Shown here one piece after another: positions 2,651 through 36,555 of a stretch of DNA of 37,414 nucleotides. The stretch lies in the IMG/VR virus record IMGVR_UViG_3300001200_000025, positions 1 to 37,414 of that record; one strand, 5' to 3'. The translations under genes were made by a program, and so were the position numbers. The notes beneath the pieces were generated by a model. It was not told the DNA's origin. It made no database searches and saw only the letters and a list, made by a program, of their open reading frames with translations. Within the stretch, counting starts at the first letter, position 1. Each line of letters begins with the position of its first letter. Origin of the DNA: a virus.

Positions 2651-2823
2651 AAGGCAAAAACACCCTGAAATTGAACCACGCCACGATGGTTGAGGCGGTC
2701 AACCTGTGGCTGGGCGCGCAATTCAAGACGCCGCCCACCTGCGAAAAGGTCACGCAATTGCCCGACCATTTCAGCGGCGAATTTGAGGTCAGGGTTTCCT
2801 CACCCGATGAGGTGCAGCAATGA
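2647..2823 (+). CDS. Hypothetical small protein (58 aa), not in the supplied ORF track
   Basis: Read by hand as MKGKNTLKLNHATMVEAVNLWLGAQFKTPPTCEKVTQLPDHFSGEFEVRVSSPDEVQQ. ATGA overlaps at both ends exactly fill the gap between flanking genes. Confidence 0.45.
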   Translation: MKGKNTLKLNHATMVEAVNLWLGAQFKTPPTCEKVTQLPDHFSGEFEVRVSSPDEVQQ

Positions 2824-3443
2824 TCAATCCCTTCCCCGGCTTCAAAGCAACCGCCACCACCGTGCATGATGCCTCAATCTGGACCGGCAGCACCTACATG
2901 GATTTGGTCAACCCGAACCCAGCCGAGATCAGCTTTACCGAAATCGCGCGCGCCCTGTCACGCATCGCCCGTTTTACCGGGCACACCGACCGTTTCTATT
3001 CGGTGGCCGAGCATTGCGTGAATTGCGTGGCGGTGTTTTCATTTCACGCGGCAGGCGATATCTACACCGACCCGCATTTGCGCGATATCGCGCAGGATAT
3101 CCTTATGCACGATGCTGCCGAGGCGTATCTGGGCGATGTGTCCAGCCCGCTCAAGCGCGTGATCGCCGAATGCTACAAGCCGCTTGAGGCCAACATGCAC
3201 GCGGCCATCGCGGCGCGCTTCAATCTCGGTGGCACGGCACCTGAATGGGTCAAGCGCTGCGACCTTGAGGTGCTGAATGCCGAAAAGCTGGCGCTCATGC
3301 CCGAGGCCGGTGAGTGGCCGTGCGATGTGGCGCGGGTGCCAGATATCGAGATTTTGGGCCTTGAGCCTGAAATTGCCGAGCGCGATTTTACCCACATGGC
3401 CGAGGACTTGGGCCTCATTCCTGCCGAGGGGGTGACGTTCTAA
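2820..3443 (+). CDS. HD-domain phosphohydrolase (YfbR/5'-deoxynucleotidase-like)
   Basis: Motifs RFTGHT, YSVAEHCV and ILMHDAAEAYLGDVSSPLK form the H...HD...D metal-binding pattern of the HD superfamily. Confidence 0.85.
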   Translation: MINPFPGFKATATTVHDASIWTGSTYMDLVNPNPAEISFTEIARALSRIARFTGHTDRFYSVAEHCVNCVAVFSFHAAGDIYTDPHLRDIAQDILMHDAAEAYLGDVSSPLKRVIAECYKPLEANMHAAIAARFNLGGTAPEWVKRCDLEVLNAEKLALMPEAGEWPCDVARVPDIEILGLEPEIAERDFTHMAEDLGLIPAEGVTF

Positions 3444-5381: not shown

Positions 5382-5716
5382 CCAGCCGCCGCGCCCGCAT
5401 CCGCGAAAAGATCGCCGCAAATGTCATCCTGCGCCCGTGCCCCGTGCCCGGCCTGATCGGTGATTGCCATGAGTGGCAAGGCGGCACCAGCGGCATCGGG
5501 CGCGGCGGCAATTATGCCCGCATGAGTTTGGACGGCGGCACCGTGGCCGTCCACATCGCGGCATGGGTGAATGAGAATGGCCTGATCCCGCCGCGCAAGC
5601 AACTTGATCACCTGTGCCGCGTGCGCAGGTGCGTGAACCCGGCGCACCTTGAATTGGTGACGCCAAAACAAAACGCAAAGCGGCGCAGCGCCGCAAACCG
5701 AAAGGCACGAAAATGA
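5378..5716 (+). CDS. HNH endonuclease
   Basis: CHEWQGG...VAVHIAAW...LDHLCRVRRCVNPAHLELVTPKQN is the classic HNH_3 pattern. GTG start overlaps the upstream stop (GTGA). Confidence 0.85.
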   Translation: MTSRRARIREKIAANVILRPCPVPGLIGDCHEWQGGTSGIGRGGNYARMSLDGGTVAVHIAAWVNENGLIPPRKQLDHLCRVRRCVNPAHLELVTPKQNAKRRSAANRKARK

Positions 5717-6702
5717 GCACATCTGAGAACCTGAAACTGCCCCTCTTGTTGCCTGCGCAGGCGCAAAAGCATGTCACCGTTAATGAGGCACTATCCTTGC
5801 TCGACGTTCTGGCCGCCTTGGTTGTCGTGTCAGCCGATCAAACTACCCCGCCCGCAAACCCCGCCAATGGGATGGCCTATATCGTCAACACCGACGCGAC
5901 TGGCGATTGGTTGGGTAAAGACGGCCAGATTGCCGCATTCATCAACGGCGGGTGGGTTTTCATCACCCCTGCCGCCGGATGGTCCGCGTGGGACAACCGC
6001 GAAAATCAGGCGCTCATCTTTAGCAACGGCAGGTGGTCACCGAGGCCCGCTGGGCAAACCACCCCGCGCCTTGGCATTAACGCCACCGCCGATGATGTAA
6101 ACCGACTTTCCGTCTCCTCGCCCGCCTCACTGTTAAACCATGATGGCGCGGGCCATCAACTCAAGATCAATAAGGACGCCGTTTCCGACACAGCCAGCCT
6201 GCTTTACCAGCGCGATTTTTCGGGCCGCGCCGAGATGGGTCTGGCCGGGTCTGATGATTTTTCAGTAAAGGTGAGCGCCGATGGCGTGACTTGGCTTGAG
6301 GCGATGCGTTGCGAGCCGCTCACGGGTACCGCCGTTTTTGAGAACGGCCTAGACAGTCTGCAATTGATTATCCCCCACAATGGTGTTGCATCAATCAGCA
6401 CGCCATCATCGGGCGGCTTCTTGCTTGTCTCTATGGTCAACCCGGGCTTTCCCCAAAGCAACGCCAACGGAATCCTTGTTTACGACACCGGAGTCAACCC
6501 GGGCCTGACCAGCGTTTGGCTTGGCGGCAGTCTGGAGAATGCGGGCACGACAAGCCTCACGGGCGCAACTGGTGCGGCGGGAAAGGTCAGCCTGAGCGCT
6601 CAAGCTGGCGGCACCATTCAAATTGAGCACCGGCACGGCGCAGGCGGCGGCCAGCCCGGTCAATTCTGCATCACTTGGATCAACGGATTCCGCCCGGCCT
6701 GA
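5713..6702 (+). CDS. DUF2793-like protein (virion-surface or fibre-like family seen in alphaproteobacterial phage/GTA loci)
   Basis: The N-terminus LKLPLLLPAQAQKHVTVNEALSLLDVL ... NGMAYIV ... GQIAAFINGGWVFITP matches the remembered DUF2793 signature. Confidence 0.65.
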   Translation: MSTSENLKLPLLLPAQAQKHVTVNEALSLLDVLAALVVVSADQTTPPANPANGMAYIVNTDATGDWLGKDGQIAAFINGGWVFITPAAGWSAWDNRENQALIFSNGRWSPRPAGQTTPRLGINATADDVNRLSVSSPASLLNHDGAGHQLKINKDAVSDTASLLYQRDFSGRAEMGLAGSDDFSVKVSADGVTWLEAMRCEPLTGTAVFENGLDSLQLIIPHNGVASISTPSSGGFLLVSMVNPGFPQSNANGILVYDTGVNPGLTSVWLGGSLENAGTTSLTGATGAAGKVSLSAQAGGTIQIEHRHGAGGGQPGQFCITWINGFRPA

Positions 6703-14219: not shown

Positions 14220-14677
14220 TGGCCCTTAATCGCGCAGAGATCATCGGAAACCTTGGGGCTGACCCTGACGTGCGCAGCTTTGCCAATGGCGGCAAGGTTG
14301 CAAATCTTTCGGTTGCCACGACACGCAAGTGGAAAGATCGCAATTCGGGTGAGACGCAAGAGCGCACCGAATGGCACCGCGTTGCGATTACCGCCGAGGG
14401 GTTGGCCGGGGTGGCCGAGCGCTACCTGAAAAAAGGCTCCAAGGTCTATATTGCCGGGCGGCTGCAAACCCGCAAATGGCAAGACCAGAGCGGGCAGGAT
14501 CGCTACACTACCGAGATTGTGGTGGCCGGTTTTGAGGGCACGCTTGAGATGCTGGGCGATGCGCGCGGCGGCAGTGGCGGCGACCCCGGCCCCGGGCCTG
14601 ATGGTCAGGGCGGCGGCTATGGCGGCTCCGATCAGGGCGGCGGCAGCCGTGATCTTGACGACGAAATCCCATTCTGA
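14219..14677 (+). CDS. ssb: Single-stranded DNA-binding protein
   Basis: The OB-fold N-terminus reads [17 protein letters not shown]...TEWHRV...[29 protein letters not shown], followed by a Gly-rich linker and the canonical acidic tip DLDDEIPF. The start overlaps the terL stop (alternative ATG at 14213). Confidence 0.9.
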
Positions 14678-29179: not shown

Positions 29180-29211
29180 AGGCCCGGGCACAACACCCGG
29201 GCCTCTTTTTA
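29180..29211 (+). terminator. Rho-independent terminator ending the structural operon
   Basis: A 9-bp stem (aggcccggg / cccgggcct) with a 7-nt loop, followed by ctttttat. Confidence 0.7.
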
Positions 29212-29285
29212 TCGGAGATCGCAAATGCAATTGCGCACCTACACCCCGCGCCGATGCGCCCGAGCGCCGCGCGGGGTTTCGCCCT

Positions 29286-29585
29286 ATGACCAGTAATGGC
29301 GCATCTGCCGTTGCGGGCGCGCTCGGCCTCACTTCGCCCTTTTGGCTCACATTGCTGGACCCCGCCTACAAGGCGGTGGTGGCTGCCATGGGTTTCATTT
29401 TGCTGGTGCTGACCATTCGCAACAAATGGCTGGACTTGAAAATCAAGGCCGCAACGCTGCGCGAGATCGCGGCGAATGTTGAGGAGATCAAGGAAACCCT
29501 TGAGGCCGACCCGCCCGCCGATGTGGCGGCAAACATTCAAGAGATCAAGGAGGCCGTAGCCGATGGCAAAACCCAAGACAAATAA
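29286..29585 (+). CDS. Single-pass membrane protein with coiled-coil tail (holin candidate)
   Basis: The TM segment is AVVAAMGFILLVLTI. The tail has the internal repeat ANVEEIKETL / ANIQEIKEAV. It overlaps the next gene by 23 nt. Confidence 0.5.
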   Translation: MTSNGASAVAGALGLTSPFWLTLLDPAYKAVVAAMGFILLVLTIRNKWLDLKIKAATLREIAANVEEIKETLEADPPADVAANIQEIKEAVADGKTQDK

Positions 29586-31167
29586 GAACCGCACGGCCCC
29601 CATCACCCCCGCCGAGGCAAGCGAGGCTGTGTTGGCCTATGATGCGCATGGCTCCACCCGCAAGGCCGCCGCTGGCCTTGGCATCACCCGCTCGGCCCTG
29701 ATGCGCCGTCTACGCAAGGCTGACGGGTGGGGCATCACGCCCCATGGTGAGATTGTGGCCAGCCAAGCCCACGCCCTTGCGGTGCCCGAAAAGGGCGTGG
29801 CCCGCTACATCCTCACCGCCGCCCAAAGCAACACCAACATCCACCCCGAGTTGTGGGAAAACATCAAGGCGCTCGCCAACCACTACGGTGCCGAGATCAT
29901 GGTGGGGCGCATCCGGTACAACCACACCGCGCAGCAAATTGGCCAAGAGGCCACGGGCAAAGGTGACGTTGATAATAGCCTTTGGTATGACGCGGCGCTT
30001 GAGCCGTATTTCTGCCAAGATCGGGTTGAGATCGCGCCGGGGCTTTTGTGGGTGGGTGATATGAATATCATCCCCACGGCCACAAGCCCGCTTTCCGGCC
30101 TTGATAGTTTTGCCGGTGCCACAAGCTGCATTTTTGCGCACCCGCAAATCGCGCAAAAATCAGTAGCCACCGCGCCCGACATTGATGCCAAGATGCTCTA
30201 CACCACCGGCGCGGTCACGCTCAAGCGATACATCAAGCGCAAGGCCGGTCAAAAGGCCGAGTTTCACCACGCCTATGCCGCCCTGATCGCCGAGGTTGAC
30301 GCGGCTGGCGATTGGTTTGTGCGCCAACTGAATGCCGACACCCTCGGCACCATCCATGACCTTGATTTGCGCGTGTCTGGAGGCGTGGTTGGCCCCGGTG
30401 CCGTTGAGGTGCTGACCCCGGGCGATATTCACGGCACCGAAATTGACCCGGTGGCACATCAAACGGTTTGGGGTGAGGGCGGCATGGTTGACGTGCTCAA
30501 GCCGCAAGTGCAGGTGCTGCATGATGTGCTCAATTTTGGGCGGCGCTCGCATCACAACAGTGTTTTTGACCTGATTGCGGCCCACTACAACCGCGCGGAA
30601 TCGGTTGAGGGTGAGGTTGAGGCCACGGCGGCCATCTTGGGCACCTTGCTGCGCCCGGGCACGAAAACCTATGTGGTCAAGGCCAACCATGATGAGCACT
30701 TTGACCGATGGGTGACCGAGGCCGATTTTCGCCGCGACCCGGTAAATGCCTCATTCTACCTTGAGGCCGCTGGCCAAAAGGTGGCCGCACTCAAGCGCCA
30801 TGATGCTGACTTTGATCTGGTGGAGTGGGCGCTGAAAAAGGCCGGGCTTGCCGATGATGTGGCCTTTCTGGCGCGTGATGAGCGGCTTGAGATCGCTGGC
30901 ATCCGGCATGATCAGCATGGCGATTTGGGTCCGAATGGCGCACGCGGCTCGGCGGCCAATATCAGCCGCACCGGTGAGAAAACCAACATCGGGCACAGTC
31001 ACTCGGCAGGTATCGTGCATGGCTGTTACCAGATGGGCACCATGAGCGTGCTGCGCATGGGTTACACGCGCGGCCCGTCAAGCTGGTCGCACACCCTGAC
31101 CCTCACCTATGGCAACCGCAAGCGCGCCAACATCACCCTGAAAAACGGAAAATGGAGGGCGCAATGA
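29563..31167 (+). CDS. HTH-containing calcineurin-like metallophosphoesterase (534 aa)
   Basis: The N-terminal HTH is GSTRKAAAGLGITRSALMRRLRKA. The C-terminal half carries all MPP motifs in order: GDIHG, HDVLNFG, KANHDEHF, DQHGD and IGHSHSAG. The ~270-aa region between them is of unknown fold. Confidence 0.75.
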   Translation: MAKPKTNKNRTAPITPAEASEAVLAYDAHGSTRKAAAGLGITRSALMRRLRKADGWGITPHGEIVASQAHALAVPEKGVARYILTAAQSNTNIHPELWENIKALANHYGAEIMVGRIRYNHTAQQIGQEATGKGDVDNSLWYDAALEPYFCQDRVEIAPGLLWVGDMNIIPTATSPLSGLDSFAGATSCIFAHPQIAQKSVATAPDIDAKMLYTTGAVTLKRYIKRKAGQKAEFHHAYAALIAEVDAAGDWFVRQLNADTLGTIHDLDLRVSGGVVGPGAVEVLTPGDIHGTEIDPVAHQTVWGEGGMVDVLKPQVQVLHDVLNFGRRSHHNSVFDLIAAHYNRAESVEGEVEATAAILGTLLRPGTKTYVVKANHDEHFDRWVTEADFRRDPVNASFYLEAAGQKVAALKRHDADFDLVEWALKKAGLADDVAFLARDERLEIAGIRHDQHGDLGPNGARGSAANISRTGEKTNIGHSHSAGIVHGCYQMGTMSVLRMGYTRGPSSWSHTLTLTYGNRKRANITLKNGKWRAQ

Positions 31168-31736
31168 CCACATGCGGCTATTTGGACACTCGTGATTTTG
31201 AATGCACAGAAAATTGTGATTGCCGACCCGGTGATTGTGCGAAAAAACGCCCGGCCAGTACCCTCGGCAAACTGACCGCCGAGGAGCAAGAAAATTGGGG
31301 CAATCCCGATTACAAGCCGGGTGATCTGCCGCCACCCCACCCCAATGACCCCAAGCAAGGCGAGGGTGAGAAAAAGATACCCTTTCACGCGCTGCCCTTT
31401 GCCGTTCTGGCCGAGGATGCTGTGGCACATGGTGAGGGTGCCCTGAAATACGGGCGGCACAACTGGCGCGAGGGCGAGGTGCTGGCGTCGACCTACTTTG
31501 CCGCCGCCCTGCGCCATCTTTTCGCGTGGTTTGAGGGTGAGAATGTGGACCCCGATAGCGGCCTTTCGCACCTCACCAAAGCCCGCGCCTCGCTTGGCGT
31601 TCTGCGCGATGCGCAGATCCAAGGCACTGCCATTGATGATCGGCCTCGGCCAAGCCCCGAGGGGCTGATGGCCGATCTTAACCAAGCCTCGGGCGACATG
31701 GCCCGGCGCGTTCAATCTGCAAAGAAAGGCAAATGA
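31164..31736 (+). CDS. DUF5664-like all-alpha NTP pyrophosphohydrolase (dATP/dGTP diphosphohydrolase-type) with Cys-rich N-terminus
   Basis: IPFHALPFAVLAEDAVAHGEGALKYGRHNWREG...AAALRHLFAWFEGENVDPDSGLSHLTKA matches the remembered KYG..NW / RH / E..D.dSGL.HL signature. ATG 31164 overlaps the upstream stop (ATGA), and an alternative ATG is at 31152. Confidence 0.6.
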   Translation: MTTCGYLDTRDFECTENCDCRPGDCAKKRPASTLGKLTAEEQENWGNPDYKPGDLPPPHPNDPKQGEGEKKIPFHALPFAVLAEDAVAHGEGALKYGRHNWREGEVLASTYFAAALRHLFAWFEGENVDPDSGLSHLTKARASLGVLRDAQIQGTAIDDRPRPSPEGLMADLNQASGDMARRVQSAKKGK

Positions 31737-32386
31737 TGCTCACATATGATCACTGGACAAAGGTGCCCGCCGATATCTGGCGTTGGCCCAATTTCTCACC
31801 CGAGGAAATCGCCTGCCGGGGCACCGGTAAGGTTGGCATCAACCCCGATGCCATGGACAAGCTGCAAGCCCTGCGCACCGCGCTTGGTGTGCCGCTCATG
31901 CTCAATTCCGCCTATCGCTCGCCCGAGCATAACCGCAACGTGGGCGGGGCACGCAACTCATTCCACATGAGGGCCATGGCCTTTGATGTGTCGATGGCCA
32001 ACCACGACCCGGCCAAATTCGAGGCCGCCGCGCTTGCCGTGGGCTTCACCGGTTTCGGGTTCTATCAGCGCAGCAATTTCATGCACATCGACACCGGTCC
32101 TGATCGCTATTGGGGCGAGCGATGGAGGGCACCCAAGGCCACGCCAATTCGCCCCGTCACTCGCTTCTCACCGCCGCCCCCGGTCAAACCCGAAACGCTG
32201 GCCGAGGACAAGGCCGCCAAGGGCGTTGCCATCGGCGCAGGCGGTGCCATCACGGTGCTCGGCACGCTCACCTCGGCCATCGGCAACCTCGGCCCCACGG
32301 CGCAGATTGTGGCGCTGGTGGGTGGTTTGGCGTTGCTCGGCGGCCTCGGCTACCTCATCCGCGACAAGGTGCGCGAATGGTTCTGA
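31733..32386 (+). CDS. Peptidase M15A-type endolysin with C-terminal hydrophobic anchor
   Basis: NFSPEEIACRG...LNSAYRSPEHNRNVGGARNSFHMRAMAFD...FMHID is the zinc D-Ala-D-Ala carboxypeptidase-type motif set. The last ~60 aa form a Gly/Ala-rich TM-like region. Confidence 0.85.
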   Translation: MMLTYDHWTKVPADIWRWPNFSPEEIACRGTGKVGINPDAMDKLQALRTALGVPLMLNSAYRSPEHNRNVGGARNSFHMRAMAFDVSMANHDPAKFEAAALAVGFTGFGFYQRSNFMHIDTGPDRYWGERWRAPKATPIRPVTRFSPPPPVKPETLAEDKAAKGVAIGAGGAITVLGTLTSAIGNLGPTAQIVALVGGLALLGGLGYLIRDKVREWF

Positions 32387-32628
32387 TCGCGCGCATCATT
32401 GCGGCCACGCCGCGCCCCGTCTGGTGGGCGCTGGCCGTGGTGGCGGTGCTTGGCGCAACCTACGCCATTGGCGCGCGGGATAATGCCCGCGCGCACAAGG
32501 CGCAAGATCGTGAGGAATACCATGACACGCTTGAAAGGATTGACGGCACGCTTGGCCATTCTGGTGGCGCTGATGCTGCCCGTGGCCGCTTGCACGACAC
32601 CCTCGGGCCATGGCCGGGCAATTTGTGA
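32377..32628 (+). CDS. i-spanin candidate (N-terminal TM, type II membrane protein)
   Basis: ATG 32377 lies just before the endolysin stop. The TM is VWWALAVVAVLGATYAI, followed by a charged periplasmic segment. Confidence 0.55.
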   Translation: MVLIARIIAATPRPVWWALAVVAVLGATYAIGARDNARAHKAQDREEYHDTLERIDGTLGHSGGADAARGRLHDTLGPWPGNL

Positions 32629-32846: not shown

Positions 32847-32951
32847 TTTTAGACGGCACATTCAAAAAGTAACGCCTAACATATTGTTTTAATGTGATTT
32901 ATGGTGGTGGGGAATTTTAGTTAGACACCTACCGTCGGAGCCATAATTTCA

Positions 32952-32990
32952 AAAGCCCAATGCCTAGTGCGTTGGGCTTTTTGCTTTTTA
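32952..32990 (+). terminator. Terminator-like hairpin in the AT-rich att-like region
   Basis: aaagcccaa / ttgggcttt forms a stem with an inner extension, followed by ttgcttttt. It may instead belong to an att core or a small RNA. Confidence 0.35.
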
Positions 32991-33054
32991 TCTCAATAAA
33001 ATCAATGCCTTGCAAATTGTGTAGCATTTTCCAGCTTGTCATTGGGTCCAAAAT

Positions 33055-33087
33055 CCCGCAACAATTCCCGCAACAAAACCCGCAACA
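33055..33087 (+). repeat. CCCGCAACA direct repeats, cluster B (3 copies, 12-bp phase)
   Basis: cccgcaaca occurs at 33055, 33067 and 33079, ending 13 nt before the ATG at 33101. Confidence 0.9.
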
Positions 33088-33100
33088 TTGGAGCGCCGAT

Positions 33101-33298
33101 ATGCAACCGAGCGAATTGTTGAAAGAGATTGAAAGGGCCATTGATGATCTGGGCGCAGTAGCCTCCGATTTGAAAGATGTGGTTGATGGTGAGATTGATC
33201 TGGATGAGGTCAACGATGTGTATCTGCACCTTGCAGAAACGCGGTGCGTTCGGGTCAAGCAGGCAATACAGCGCGCCGAGGCGGTGGTTGCAGCATGA
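33101..33298 (+). CDS. Hypothetical acidic small protein (65 aa)
   Basis: ATG 33101 follows TGGAG. The 3' end overlaps the next start (ATGA). Confidence 0.5.
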   Translation: MQPSELLKEIERAIDDLGAVASDLKDVVDGEIDLDEVNDVYLHLAETRCVRVKQAIQRAEAVVAA

Positions 33299-33507
33299 CC
33301 GCGCTCATGCGCGCCGGGCGCTTTACCGGCCTCACCAGCGTGGCGGCAGTTGATCTACCACCTGATTTAGCGCACTCATGGGCGCAGGGTTTAGTACAAT
33401 CAACGGCGCACCCCGACCCCGAGATCGGGCACTACCATTGGCGGCGCTGGTCTGACGTGGACCTTGATGTATTTTTGTTATCTCTTTGTGGGGTGAGTGA
33501 TGGATGA
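33295..33507 (+). CDS. Hypothetical protein (70 aa)
   Basis: Coupled to the upstream gene by an ATGA overlap. Confidence 0.5.
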   Translation: MTALMRAGRFTGLTSVAAVDLPPDLAHSWAQGLVQSTAHPDPEIGHYHWRRWSDVDLDVFLLSLCGVSDG

Positions 33508-33655
33508 TCGTGACCTACGCCCGCGCCATCATCGCAACATGCGTTTTGCGCGCACGGAAAACATCATCCTGACCACGTTGGCGATTGGCTTTGCGGTGCT
33601 GGTGTGGGGCGGCAAGATTGCGCTGCTATGGCAACTCATCTCAAGGATATTTTAA
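33500..33655 (+). CDS. Hypothetical small membrane protein (51 aa), not in the ORF track
   Basis: Read by hand as MDDRDLRPRHHRNMRFARTENIILTTLAIGFAVLVWGGKIALLWQLISRIF. It has one TM and overlaps the upstream gene by 8 nt. Confidence 0.35.
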   Translation: MDDRDLRPRHHRNMRFARTENIILTTLAIGFAVLVWGGKIALLWQLISRIF

Positions 33656-33704
33656 CCATTATCGGATGGGCTGTCATTGAAACATGCAAGCAAAGGGTGA
33701 GACG

Positions 33705-34079
33705 ATGAAAATTCTATTGGGCGGCGCTGCCGCCGTGGGTGTTCTGGCGATGGTGGTTGCGGGCGGCGGTGGCGATGATGCTGCCGCCGTCAAGCGTGTC
33801 GGGTATTTCAAATCAGATGATGGCGCGCGCGTGATGGCCTATCAGGCCGCTGCGCCGGTTTCCGATCTTGAGGCCCGGGCGATATTGCGCGCGGCACCCT
33901 CAACGGATGGCAGGGTGACCATGGCGGTGCTATACCAACCCGGCAGCGCGGCACCGGGCGGCGAATTGACCACCGCCCCGAACCTCACCGCCGCTGCCCG
34001 GCTGATCGGCGAGCCGCCCTTTGATACTTGGGCGGTGCGCCTGCGCGTCAACCCGGCGGGATTGCAGACATTCGATTGA
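33705..34079 (+). CDS. Exported protein with signal peptide (124 aa)
   Basis: ATG 33705 follows GGGTGAG. The N-terminus MKILLGGAAAVGVLAMVVAGGGG is signal-peptide-like. Confidence 0.6.
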   Translation: MKILLGGAAAVGVLAMVVAGGGGDDAAAVKRVGYFKSDDGARVMAYQAAAPVSDLEARAILRAAPSTDGRVTMAVLYQPGSAAPGGELTTAPNLTAAARLIGEPPFDTWAVRLRVNPAGLQTFD

Positions 34080-34094
34080 GGAAGGCGTGACGGG

Positions 34095-35414
34095 GTGGGA
34101 ATTGTAAACGACCGGGGGCGATATTATTGGGTCAAGCGCATCCCAAAGCGCTACGCTGGCCTTGTGCGCGGCGCTGATGGCCAGCCGGTCAGTCAGGTGC
34201 GCCAAGCCCTGCACACCGATAGCAAGCCCGAGGCGCGCGCCAAGGCCGCGCAAATTGAGGCCGAGCGCATGGCCGAATGGGAGGCCATGCTGGCCGGTGA
34301 CAGCGCCAGTGCCCGCGCCCATTATGAGGCCGCGCGCAAGCTGGCGCAGGCCCGGGGTTTTGCCTATCGGCCCGTGGGTGACATTGCGGGCGGTGATTTG
34401 CCCGATTTGGTGGCGCGCCTCACATCGCTGGCCGAGGGTGGCAATCTGACGGCCAGCCCGGCGGCAACCGAGGCCATCTTGGGCACCGTGCCCGAGGTGC
34501 TGCCATCGCTGATTGAGTTGCGGGATGAGTATTATGACCGCACCAAAACCCGGCATCTGAAAAAATCGGAGATGCAACTCAAGAAATGGCGGCAGAAACG
34601 CGACCGCGCGGTGCGCAATTTCCTTGATGTGATCGTGCCCGGGCCTGATCCCGACAAAAAGGATCTGCCCATGGCCGAGGTGAACCGGGCCAATGCGCTC
34701 AAGTTTCGGGATTGGTGGCAAGTCAAGGTTGAGGGTGGCCTAAAAATCGACACGGCCAACAAAGATTTGAGCCATCTTTCCGAGATGCTGCGCACATGGG
34801 CCAAGCTGACCGACACGGCGCTTGATGATCCCTTTGCCGGGCTGCGCCTTGAGGGCAAGGATGAGAGCGAGAAACCGGCCTTTTCGCGCGAATGGATTAC
34901 CGGTCAGATATTGGCCCCCGGTGCGCTTGATGGCCTGAATGATGAGGCCGCCGATGTGCTGTTGATCATGCTCAACACCGCCCTGCGCCCGTCCGAGATC
35001 ACCGATGCGCCGTTGAGCGATTTTGAGACAACGGCCAATGTGCCCTATCTGCGCGTGGCCCCGAATGGCCGTGAGTTAAAGGTGGCGCACACAAAGCGCG
35101 ATATTCCGCTTTTGGGGGTTTCTCTTGAGGCTGCCCGCCGCATCGTGGCCCGGGGTGGCATTCTGCGCTATCGGCACAAGGCCGGGTCGTGGTCTGCCGC
35201 CGTTAATAAGTATCTGGCCACCAATGGGCTGCGCGAAACCCCGGCGCATACCGCCTATTCAATTCGCCACTATGTTGAAAATGCCTTGCTGGCCGCAAAG
35301 GTTGATGATCGGGTGCGCGCCGATATCTTGGGGCACAAATATCATCGGCCAAGCTATGGTGATGGTGGTGCCTTGGCTGGCCGCGCCGAGGCGCTGACGC
35401 TCATCGCTCTTTAG
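34095..35414 (+). CDS. int: Tyrosine integrase (DUF6538-type N-terminus)
   Basis: The N-terminus is RGRYYWVKRIPKRY. Catalytic-type motifs are ALRPSEI, YSIRHYVEN, LGH and PSYGDG. GTG start. Confidence 0.9.
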   Translation: MGIVNDRGRYYWVKRIPKRYAGLVRGADGQPVSQVRQALHTDSKPEARAKAAQIEAERMAEWEAMLAGDSASARAHYEAARKLAQARGFAYRPVGDIAGGDLPDLVARLTSLAEGGNLTASPAATEAILGTVPEVLPSLIELRDEYYDRTKTRHLKKSEMQLKKWRQKRDRAVRNFLDVIVPGPDPDKKDLPMAEVNRANALKFRDWWQVKVEGGLKIDTANKDLSHLSEMLRTWAKLTDTALDDPFAGLRLEGKDESEKPAFSREWITGQILAPGALDGLNDEAADVLLIMLNTALRPSEITDAPLSDFETTANVPYLRVAPNGRELKVAHTKRDIPLLGVSLEAARRIVARGGILRYRHKAGSWSAAVNKYLATNGLRETPAHTAYSIRHYVENALLAAKVDDRVRADILGHKYHRPSYGDGGALAGRAEALTLIAL

Positions 35415-35599
35415 GCCGCCTGATCCACCTCACCACCGATCAGCGCTGCCGCGCGCGCCAACGCAGAGTTGCGGCCACTTGCCGCCTCGGCCTCGGCCTC
35501 AAGCCGTAAGAAAACCGGCAGAAATGCCTCGCCATCACGCGCCACAATCTGCGCCGCAATGCGCAGCGCCGCGTCGATCTGCGCCCGATCAACCTGCAT
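35411..35599 (-). CDS. Hypothetical protein (62 aa)
   Basis: Its start overlaps the upstream minus-strand gene by 11 nt. Its stop overlaps the int stop convergently by 4 nt. Confidence 0.45.
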   Translation of the reverse strand: MQVDRAQIDAALRIAAQIVARDGEAFLPVFLRLEAEAEAASGRNSALARAAALIGGEVDQAA

Positions 35600-35834
35600 G
35601 GTATGTCACCTTTAGGTTGAGCGAATTTAGTTTCCTAATGAATGTCTGATAGGTCAGCCCGGCCATCTTGGCGGCCTTGCTCTTATTACCGTCGGCGGCA
35701 TTAAGTACCGTGCAAATGTATTCCTTTTCAACGGCCTGTATCGCTTGGCTAAGCGTCTGGCCGTCAAATTCTGTTTTCTGCGGCACGTTCTGTGCCGGTC
35801 CCTCGTCCAACAAAAATCCAAATCCCCATCTCAA
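35589..35834 (-). CDS. Fis-type HTH DNA-binding protein (possible excisionase/recombination directionality factor)
   Basis: The C-terminus EKEYICTVLNAADGNKSKAAKMAGLTYQTFIRKLNSL is an HTH_8 (Fis/NtrC C-terminal) pattern. The gene is markedly lower in GC than its neighbours. Confidence 0.7.
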   Translation of the reverse strand: MRWGFGFLLDEGPAQNVPQKTEFDGQTLSQAIQAVEKEYICTVLNAADGNKSKAAKMAGLTYQTFIRKLNSLNLKVTYHAG

Positions 35835-35888
35835 CTGTGTCGATTGATATTAAACCGAGAGTTGTGTGGAGAGTGTTAACGTGCGATT

Positions 35889-35913
35889 AAAAACCGGTCA
35901 AAAATACCGGTTT
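35889..35913 (-). terminator. Hairpin with T-run on the minus strand downstream of the repressor gene
   Basis: On the minus strand it reads aaaccggt-atttttg-accggttttt. Confidence 0.4.
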
Positions 35914-35952
35914 GATAATGTTTTTTTTGATCTGACCCTTGAAAAAACCGGC

Positions 35953-36555
35953 CTATGGCAGCTTGACAGTAAGCACAATTTTACCCATGACCGCCGCCGA
36001 CTCGGACTTGAGCCAATGCCGCACCCTGCCATCGCTATCAAGCCCGATCAGGTAAGGCTCGGCCAGATACCGGATGCAGAGGCCATCTCGGCTATCGAAT
36101 ACAACCACCAAATCCCCGGTTTGCGGCTTGTCAATCTGGCGCAGGATTACTGTGCTATCAGCGGGCACGCCGAGGGCATCGGCCCCGGGCGGCAGGTGGT
36201 AGGCGCGCAGATCGTCGCCCGAGCCATCAATTTCAATGTCCAGCTTTTCCAGTAGCGGGAATGCGTCAAGCCCTTCCAAATCCTGCCAAGCTGGCCCCTT
36301 GTGCAGCCTTGACGCAGCCCTGCGCACCTCGCTTTCCCCCGAAAGGTATTCCCGATCAACCCCGAGCGTACGCGCCAGTTTGGCCAGCGTGCCCTCCCGG
36401 GGCGTGCGGTCAGGTGAGGTGAGTAGATCATTCACGGCTCCCTTTCCAAGCCCTGCCATGGTTGACAGTTTCGTTGCCGACCATCCTTTTTCTGCCAAAA
36501 GCGCTTGCAGGCGCTCAATCGTTGCGGGTGTTGCTGTTGCCATGCTGTCTTTCAT
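35953..36555 (-). CDS. CI-like repressor (XRE-type HTH plus S24/LexA-like C-terminal domain)
   Basis: The N-terminal HTH is WSATKLSTMAGLGKGAVNDLL. The C-terminus GDLVVVFDSRDGLCIRYL...VMGKIV follows the S24 fold pattern. The gene is divergent from the early operon. Confidence 0.8.
   Translation of the reverse strand: MKDSMATATPATIERLQALLAEKGWSATKLSTMAGLGKGAVNDLLTSPDRTPREGTLAKLARTLGVDREYLSGESEVRRAASRLHKGPAWQDLEGLDAFPLLEKLDIEIDGSGDDLRAYHLPPGADALGVPADSTVILRQIDKPQTGDLVVVFDSRDGLCIRYLAEPYLIGLDSDGRVRHWLKSESAAVMGKIVLTVKLP

Follow-up and report, generated by a model that had tools for sequence, protein, structure and literature searches.

The A1 protein of bacteriophage T5 has been reported to be both necessary and sufficient for degradation of the Escherichia coli chromosome, and it has been predicted to be a metallophosphatase (bioRxiv 10.64898/2026.04.02.716235). 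It is toxic when expressed alone, it is needed for shut-off and, together with A2, for the second step of DNA transfer, and it fractionates with membranes. A 2026 preprint on T5 describes A1 as predominantly associated with the Demerecviridae; homologues outside the T5-like phages were noted in 2012 in phiCbK and phiJL001 (PMC3556154), and another has been noted in Rhizobium phage Palo. The family is well known from genetics rather than from biochemistry. Here we consider a member of it encoded in a viral DNA of 37,414 nucleotides (nt), IMG/VR record IMGVR_UViG_3300001200_000025 (hereafter the window, meaning the whole stretch that was analysed), where its gene is the middle one of a three-gene module. 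The third gene of the module encodes a protein with the domain DUF5664, of which one member, gp51 of Arthrobacter phage Wayne, converts dATP, dUTP and dGTP to deoxynucleoside monophosphates (dNMPs) and pyrophosphate (PPi) and is inactive on ribonucleoside triphosphates (PMC12884076).

What kind of phage carries this module? The open reading frame (ORF) map of the window, obtained by scanning its larger ORFs with PHROG and Pfam, is that of a Cronusvirus-like siphophage. Gene order and content agree with those of two described phages, RcCronus of Rhodobacter (genus Cronusvirus) and vB_DshS-R4C (hereafter R4C) of Dinoroseobacter, and on these grounds we identify the window as a temperate, Cronusvirus-like siphophage or prophage with a host among the Rhodobacterales. 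The G+C content of the module (approximately 0.60-0.62) equals that of the remaining window, so the module is no recent foreign insertion. It comprises the following features, in which the lengths of proteins are given in amino acids (aa).

29286..29585, plus strand: small membrane protein of 99 aa, recognised by hydropathy
29563..29802, plus strand: helix-turn-helix (HTH) domain, residues 1-80 of the 534-aa protein
29803..31167, plus strand: body homologous to T5 A1, residues 81-534 of the same protein, whose N-terminal part (about residues 81-237) is a conserved A1 domain of unknown fold, followed by a predicted calcineurin-like binuclear metallophosphoesterase domain (about residues 238-534)
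31164..31736, plus strand: DUF5664 protein (PF18909, dGTP_diPhyd_N), with the domain at about 31347-31643

The A1-like protein and its HTH domain

By BLASTP, residues 81-533 of the 534-aa protein aligned with residues 68-527 of the 527-aa T5 A1 at 35% identity (E = 8e-86), and the protein matched phrog_1745, which bears the label "DNA transfer protein", over positions 80-541 of the 542 in the profile (E = 4.4e-165). Its identity to RcCronus gp22, which GenBank lists as "A1-like protein" or "T5 A1-like", is 63%. By tblastn, 1134 phage records contain relatives, with 80% or more of the length covered in 1114; the carriers include T5-like phages, phiCbK-like phages of Caulobacter, podophages of Rhizobium and Paracoccus, and Flavobacterium phages. 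By its sequence, the protein belongs to the T5 A1 family over its whole length outside the HTH domain. What the original prediction had described as an unknown middle region of about 270 aa proved to be the conserved N-terminal part of this family, which aligns with T5 A1. Further carriers of A1 homologues, again with at least 80% cover, are Vibrio, Erythrobacter, Synechococcus and Cronusvirus phages.

The five phosphoesterase motifs reported in the original prediction (GDIHG, HDVLNFG, ANHDEH, HGD and GHSHS) are all present in the 534-aa protein, and each has its counterpart in T5 A1 (window/T5: GDIHG/GDIHA, HDVLNF/HDVHDF, NHDE/NHDL, HGD/HGH and GHSHS/GHTHT). Across 37 homologues, the eight canonical metal ligands D288, H290, D321, N375, H376, H452, H478 and H480 do not vary. 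In an AlphaFold (AF2) model built on the alignment of these homologues (predicted local distance difference test, pLDDT, 87; predicted template modelling score, pTM, 0.82), the ligand motifs follow the strands 281-288, 316-320, 368-372, 447-451 and 474-476. When the model was compared by Foldseek with BFVD, the targets of which are predicted viral structures and not solved ones, A1 homologues came first, followed by phage metallophosphoesterase, ApaH-type, LpxH-type and SbcD models (E = 1e-7 to 1e-4, probability 1.0); endonuclease subunits were also in the list. Against the PDB, the full model gave nothing at E ≤ 0.001, the best of the weak metallophosphoesterase and HTH matches having E = 0.02, and PDB sequence searches with the 534-aa protein, with a profile of the 37 sequences and with the DUF5664 protein gave no meaningful match. 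Neither of these two proteins matched NCBIfam. The Pfam models Metallophos and Metallophos_2 matched neither the window protein nor T5 A1 at E < 0.1; the A1 family is too divergent for these models, and the phosphoesterase domain is predicted here from the motifs together with the modelled fold.

The N-terminal HTH domain, which had likewise been recognised in the original prediction, appears in the model as three confident helices (16-29, 32-39 and 43-56, pLDDT ≥ 90). The Pfam model HTH_50 matched at 3e-5, just under the cutoff, and HTH_1 and HTH_8 were also sub-threshold; RcCronus gp22 exceeds the HTH_8 cutoff. Local Foldseek matches of the domain were to the DNA-binding domains of LysR and TyrR (probability 0.87-0.99), with E-values that were not significant. 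According to a hidden Markov model (HMM) of the HTH domain, it is fused to the A1-like body in approximately 39 of 86 related loci (about 45%), and never occurs as a separate neighbouring gene in those 86 loci. We also considered that the domain might be a fused form of T5 A2; this idea is unsupported, in that neither BLASTP nor profile comparison revealed any similarity.

How far does the likeness to the described proteins extend? The homology to T5 A1 (PHROG 1745) takes in the conserved N-terminal domain and all of the metallophosphoesterase ligand motifs; judged from this similarity, the chemistry is likely to be that of T5 A1, and the role in degrading host DNA may possibly be shared as well. 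T5 A1, however, lacks the HTH domain, and the window has neither an A2 partner nor Dmp. In addition, the window gene is located after the tail genes and beside the lysis genes, not in a terminal-repeat or first-step-transfer (FST) region, and the phage is temperate, with an integrase and no identifiable FST region. The A2 partner and the pre-early FST location are traits of the T5 system and not of the A1 protein family. RcCronus gp22 is closer: it shares the HTH-A1 architecture and the position after the tail and minor-tail genes, and it too is preceded by a gene for a small membrane protein with an overlap of 23 nt. In RcCronus, however, the gene for SSB, the protein that binds single-stranded DNA, lies downstream in place of DUF5664, the endolysin gene follows the terminase gene, ParA/RepA takes the place of the integrase, and the upstream membrane protein is unrelated to the 99-aa protein. 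With Mre11/SbcD and other calcineurin-like metallophosphoesterases, the window protein shares the order of the ligand motifs and, by Foldseek against viral models, the fold class; it differs from them in that there is no significant match in sequence or to a PDB structure, there is no SbcC/Rad50 partner, and an additional N-terminal domain of 155 aa, unique to the A1 family, is present.

The DUF5664 protein and its pairing with A1-like genes

The product of the third gene matched PF18909 over profile positions 2-99 of 99 (E = 6e-27; 93.9 bits, the cutoff being 27), which confirms its earlier assignment to the DUF5664 type; it also matched phrog_2252 (8e-50) and phrog_801 (9e-27), and its core is 38% identical to Wayne gp51 over 94 aa (E = 2e-15). 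Across 12 diverse members, the core residues G92, K95, Y96, H118, G125 and D129 are invariant and N100, R117, E126 and H136 nearly so. By homology, the protein is a probable deoxynucleoside triphosphate (dNTP) pyrophosphohydrolase. The Cys-rich N-terminus pointed out in the original prediction does exist in this protein; because this leader is missing from a relative that is 88% identical, and the N-terminal stretch is hypervariable, it is not a conserved feature. The Pfam domain is also that of Wayne gp51, which is a stand-alone DUF5664 protein, and of the DUF5664-DUF550 dATP/dGTP pyrophosphohydrolase of Acinetobacter phage SH-Ab 15497. Those two enzymes serve the synthesis of 2-aminoadenine (Z) genomes together with PurZ/PurZ0, whereas the window has no PurZ, no DatZ-type set and no DmtZ/DutZ: neither PurZ0 nor DmtZ-DutZ homologues were found in it by tblastn (E ≤ 1), and there were no Z-genome genes among the annotated ORFs. 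The phage is therefore not a Z-genome phage, and manipulation of the nucleotide pool must serve another end.

The three co-oriented genes are tightly coupled, with a terminator before them and an endolysin gene after them, exactly as had been claimed in the original prediction. The ORFs are 29286-29585 (99 aa), 29563-31167 (534 aa), 31152/31164-31736 (194/190 aa) and 31733-32386, the last of these being the endolysin gene. The first two share 23 nt (29563-29585). ATG 31164 is most likely the start of the third gene, since GGAGGG lies 5 nt upstream of it, and given this start the second and third genes overlap by ATGA, as do the third gene and the endolysin gene (31733-31736).

Is the pairing peculiar to this phage? 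We drew on GTDB genomes and IMG/VR for 83 loci that contain genes for relatives of the 534-aa protein, scanned these loci with a DUF5664 HMM built by iteration, and counted over the 78 in which the downstream sequence extends for 1.5 kb or more. A downstream DUF5664 gene was found in 17 of the 78; in all 17 it shares the strand of the A1-like gene, and in 16 of them the domain starts 12-1160 bp past the stop codon of the A1-like gene. The A1-like proteins of these 17 loci are 31-81% identical to the query and, when lineages are drawn at 60% identity, 8 of the 40 A1-like lineages have a DUF5664 neighbour, so that the pair recurs well beyond this genome. The pairwise identities of the A1-like and DUF5664 proteins are correlated (r = 0.74), which suggests that the pair has mostly been co-inherited vertically. 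When the first two downstream ORFs of 72 non-redundant loci were assigned to Pfam families, PF18909 was the commonest (14 members), followed by dNMP kinase, Clp protease, DUF6378 and two nucleoside-deoxyribosyltransferase-like families; dUTPase also occurred. DUF5664 itself is present in approximately 1.5% of phage records, mostly from actinophages without A1. We conclude that the pair is a real and recurrent neighbourhood that is facultative, and not an obligate two-component system.

Two cultured phages show how this neighbourhood can vary. In R4C, the genes for gp19, gp20 and gp21 have the three-gene layout and the genome slot of the window module, with a homologous membrane protein and a DUF5664 protein that is 67% identical. 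The nuclease gp20 (376 aa), however, falls into another family, phrog_704, "DNA repair exonuclease" (1e-96), and has only the HTH domain in common with the window protein. It follows that the arrangement of an HTH-fused metallophosphoesterase-type nuclease with DUF5664 is kept even though the nuclease family changes. We also considered that gp20 might be a remote A1 homologue and rejected this, as only the HTH domain aligns. The protein (L002, 4797-5927), which was published as a "transcriptional regulator", is an HTH domain fused to a phrog_704 exonuclease. In Rhizobium phage RHEph02 (Autographiviridae), the genes for gp022, gp023 and gp024 encode an A1-like protein, a phrog_318 HD phosphohydrolase (gp023, 4.9e-52) and DUF5664 in one contiguous row. 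The same three families are encoded in the window, where the phrog_318 gene lies apart:

2820..3443, plus strand: HD-domain phosphohydrolase, labelled "deoxyribonucleoside 5'-monophosphate phosphatase" (phrog_318, 6.9e-47)

This protein has weak Pfam matches to YfbR-like and HD_3 models, and its gene adjoins a primase gene; it is a possible third enzyme of a nucleotide route, encoded elsewhere in the genome. RHEph02 differs from the window phage in being a cultured lytic T7-like podophage in which the genes lie inside the replication module, and its A1-like protein does not align over the HTH region, the alignment beginning at query residue 81.

Each protein is a member of a known family, and no new kind of system is involved: the claim that no phage system of this composition had been described does not hold, in view of the T5 A1 family, the existing annotation of gp22 in RcCronus, the closest cultured relative, as A1-like, and the characterised DUF5664 member (PMC12884076). 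In the literature that we searched, we found no description of the recurrent A1-like/DUF5664 adjacency, of the widespread HTH-A1 architecture or of the exchange of the nuclease in R4C. The T5 A1 family reaches well beyond the Demerecviridae, to temperate siphophages and prophages of marine Rhodobacterales, rhizobial podophages and phiCbK-like phages, and is often HTH-fused. Moreover, A1-like genes lie repeatedly beside genes of nucleotide-pool enzymes, most often DUF5664, and also HD phosphohydrolase, dNMP kinase, deoxyribosyltransferase-like proteins and dUTPase. This repeated adjacency suggests, by analogy with A1 and Dmp of T5, that A1-type DNA degradation may generally be coupled to the catabolism or reshaping of deoxynucleotides. 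Small, GC-rich, HTH-bearing homologues such as these may help in working out how A1 acts.

Possible roles of the module

What might the module do? The reading that we prefer, and to which we give about even credence, is that it encodes a T5-type nuclease that degrades host DNA and has its own DNA-binding domain, together with a dNTP pyrophosphohydrolase and maybe with the HD phosphohydrolase as a further component. This reading builds on the homology, the intact catalytic motifs, the fold, the coupling of the genes and their recurrent adjacency. During lytic growth, the A1-like protein would bind DNA via its HTH domain, and its putative binuclear metal centre (D288/H290, D321, N375/H376, H452 and H478/H480) would degrade host DNA as T5 A1 does, so that the host would be shut down. 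Of the roles suggested in the original prediction, that of a DNA nuclease guided by its HTH domain comes closest to the indications from T5 genetics. The DUF5664 protein would hydrolyse dNTPs (dATP, dUTP and dGTP in the characterised enzyme) to dNMPs and PPi, by which the deoxynucleotide pool would be drained or cleaned, and the HD-domain phosphohydrolase encoded at 2820-3443 may process the dNMPs further. Such steps would parallel the "degrade and catabolise" route of A1 and Dmp in T5 with non-homologous nucleotide enzymes; the parallel between the HD protein and Dmp is drawn from annotation and analogy. We tried the HD protein as a homologue of T5 Dmp and rejected it, because no similarity was found and Dmp belongs to phrog_415.

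Two elements precede the module, the first of which bears on the presumed timing of these steps.

29180..29211, plus strand: hairpin and T-run resembling an intrinsic terminator, between the minor-tail gene and the module
29225..29296, plus strand: upstream ORF of 23 codons (MQLRTYTPRRCARAPRGVSPYDQ) that extends across the start codon of the 99-aa gene

The hairpin (29180-29204) has a stem of 9 bp, eight of which are G-C pairs, and is followed by CTTTTTATCG. In six relatives (L092, L005, L031, L006, L032 and L030), a hairpin and T-run are kept at this position with different stem sequences, and in four of the six the T-run leads directly into the GGAG ribosome-binding site of the membrane-protein gene. 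This conservation suggests that the module is reached by terminator read-through from the tail operon and that it is hence probably expressed late. Inside the 23-codon ORF there is a strong hairpin (about 29243-29278; -24.6 kcal/mol in 40 nt), and both the ORF and this hairpin are conserved in the close relative L092; they may exert translational control over a toxic operon.

A number of points weigh against a T5-like role. The identity to T5 A1 is only 35%, nuclease activity in vitro has so far been demonstrated for no protein of the A1 family, and the T5 authors leave open that A1 may activate a host nuclease (bioRxiv 10.64898/2026.04.02.716235). T5 A1 is a pre-early protein, whereas the window gene stands at the end of the late (tail/lysis) region and is probably reached by read-through, so that an early takeover of the host is not established; the late timing is itself deduced, and constitutes the main uncertainty in the mechanism. 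No homologue of either A2 or Dmp was found in the window by tblastn. A nuclease that destroys chromosomes also requires tight silencing in a temperate phage, which raises the question of how such a phage silences so toxic a gene. Finally, 78% of the A1-like loci, T5 and RcCronus among them, are without DUF5664 and, in the reverse direction, an A1-like gene was nearby in only 2 of 118 sampled DUF5664 loci (about 2%), and an R4C-type nuclease in 1, in a sample drawn by DNA pattern from IMG/VR that comprised only genes carrying G-A-x-K-Y-G-x-x-N-W. With most A1-like loci lacking DUF5664 and the reverse association being rare, the two enzymes need not act together.

Alternatively, the A1-like protein might be a replication or recombination exonuclease that acts, in the manner of SbcD/Mre11, on the ends or intermediates of the phage's own DNA, with DUF5664 as an unrelated house-cleaning enzyme for dUTP or non-canonical dNTPs that is its neighbour by way of a DNA-metabolism gene set. 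We regard this as unlikely, although it is the main rival reading. The slot holds a phrog_704 "DNA repair exonuclease" in R4C, SSB is the next gene in RcCronus, and the A1-like gene of podophages and phiCbK-like phages is flanked by helicase or methyltransferase genes on one side and by ligase or DNA polymerase genes on the other; SbcD and endonuclease subunits were among the Foldseek matches, no dUTPase was found in the window, and the association seen from the DUF5664 side is weak. However, the only genetics of the family, that of T5, leads to host DNA degradation, shut-off and DNA transfer and not to recombination, no SbcC/Rad50-like partner is nearby, and the homology is to A1 rather than to SbcD or Mre11. 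The requirement for A1 and A2 in second-step transfer in T5 raises the further idea that the membrane protein, the HTH domain (standing in for A2) and the A1 body pull in or release the incoming genome at the inner membrane, in keeping with the PHROG label, with the fractionation of A1 with membranes, with the HTH fusion in approximately 45% of loci and with the small membrane protein that is always upstream in Cronus-like phages, even where it is of a different family. Such a role would require expression from the first DNA to enter, whereas the gene lies here behind a terminator after the tail genes; neither terminal repeats nor an FST-like region are present, the HTH domain is not similar to A2, and two-step entry is known only in T5-like phages. 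We therefore consider a function in DNA entry very improbable.

Could the module act in the conflict between phages and bacterial immunity? Metallophosphoesterases and MazG-like enzymes are generally able to act on nucleotide signals, and the variable accessory neighbours of the A1-like genes are typical of counter-defence regions, so that the phosphoesterase, DUF5664 or both might hydrolyse immune nucleotide messengers (cyclic oligonucleotides or ADP-ribose derivatives) or counter dNTP-based defences. The homology, however, is specifically to A1, the phenotype of which is chromosome degradation, the characterised DUF5664 enzyme acts on dNTPs and is inactive on ribonucleoside triphosphates (PMC12884076), and we found no link in fold or sequence to known anti-CBASS, anti-Pycsar or anti-Thoeris enzymes; the chance that this is the function seems slight. 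Defence by the prophage, in which expression in the lysogen would exclude superinfecting phages through dNTP depletion or degradation of incoming DNA, would suit a temperate phage with an integrase (34095-35414) and the occurrence of A1-like genes in prophages of sequenced bacteria. Nonetheless, none of the module proteins matched PADLOC at E ≤ 0.01, nor did the HD protein or R4C gp20, the genes are translationally coupled to one another and to the endolysin gene in the late region, and the integrase and repressor are not near, being more than 3 kb downstream in L092. Because T5 A1 is toxic alone, constitutive expression in a lysogen is also unlikely, and we consider prophage defence extremely improbable. 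For degradation of immune signals and for immunity by dNTP depletion, both put forward in the original prediction, we thus obtained no positive evidence: PADLOC matches are missing, and the genes are joined to the tail and lysis genes and not to a region for lysogeny.

Beyond the preferred reading of a T5-type nuclease with a dNTP pyrophosphohydrolase, we speculate that the membrane protein, the HTH-fused nuclease and DUF5664 might form a dedicated three-part cassette of Cronus-like temperate roseophages, in which the nuclease is swappable (A1-type here, SbcD-type in R4C), the HTH domain and the other parts are kept and expression is late, with the lysis genes. This seems to us improbable. If it were true, the function would be distinct from the early takeover in T5, for example membrane-tethered destruction of host or competitor DNA with a drain on dNTPs just before lysis, or counter-defence.

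The membrane protein, the lysis genes and the remaining window

The 99-aa protein has a strong hydrophobic segment at about residues 26-45, a weaker segment before it and a charged, coiled C-terminus, as judged from hydropathy, and it is a candidate for either a holin or a membrane partner of the nuclease. Its size, hydrophobic segment and charged tail agree with a holin, but the endolysin gene is two genes away here, and no match to a holin family was found in Pfam, NCBIfam or PHROG. In L002 (R4C gp19), L005, L006, L029-L032 and L092, the gene of a homologue immediately precedes the nuclease gene, and in L009 it lies approximately 0.7 kb upstream with other ORFs between; among isolated phages, a homologue was found only in R4C. 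The gene adjoins the endolysin gene only in L032, and it stays beside the nuclease gene in relatives without a nearby endolysin (L006, L031 and R4C). SLATT_4, an effector domain of conflict systems with two transmembrane segments (2-TM), is matched below threshold (NCBIfam E = 0.0011, Pfam E = 0.043), which is probably an effect of composition. Homology to RcCronus gp21 was considered and rejected, as there is no similarity; gp21 is a different 2-TM protein at the same position.

Downstream of the module, and proposed to form a single transcription unit with it, are the following features, of which the two spanin candidates are proposed from their translations and, for the first, from hydropathy.

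31733..32386, plus strand: Peptidase_M15_3 endolysin (Pfam 1.3e-29; phrog_17373 4.7e-71)
32377..32628, plus strand: i-spanin candidate of 83 aa with an N-terminal TM segment
32522..32746, plus strand: o-spanin candidate, a lipoprotein of 74 aa with the lipobox LPVAAC
32951..32981, plus strand: terminator-like hairpin that closes the operon, with a 13-bp stem followed by a T-run

The o-spanin candidate overlaps the i-spanin gene in another frame, and in L092 a gene of 83 aa is called where the window has the i-spanin candidate. The endolysin has hydrophobic C-terminal segments, with hydropathy peaks at residues 165-210, an unusual position for a membrane anchor. The module had been described as lying inside the lysis cassette, which is so only in this phage and its closest relatives. 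Since the endolysin gene is elsewhere in RcCronus, and the gene order of the window recurs in the closest relative (94% identity of the A1-like protein), the arrangement is a local one; in podophages, the A1-like gene is found among replication genes. The SSB and endolysin genes are swapped relative to RcCronus (gp03 and gp23), the SSB gene of the window (14228-14554) following the large terminase gene and the endolysin gene (31733-32386) following the A1-like and DUF5664 genes.

According to the PHROG and Pfam scans, the window also encodes an N6/N4 DNA methyltransferase, the HD-domain "dNMP phosphatase" already mentioned, two primase-type proteins, the small and large terminase subunits, a connector, a portal and capsid-protease fusion, and a tape measure protein. 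A gene transfer agent (GTA)-like tail protein of 1294 aa comes next, then a minor tail protein and the module, and the integrase gene lies at 34095-35414. A search of the window for tRNA genes found none. The G+C content is somewhat lower (0.56-0.57 against about 0.62) at 32900-34100 and 35000-36000, that is, around the integrase gene and after the lysis terminator, where there are small unannotated ORFs; an HTH-like match at 35592-35849, on the minus strand, may represent a repressor. Interspersed with the replication genes, and a long way from the tail module, is a gene (5713-6702) for a DUF2793, tail-fibre-like protein (Pfam 1e-30).

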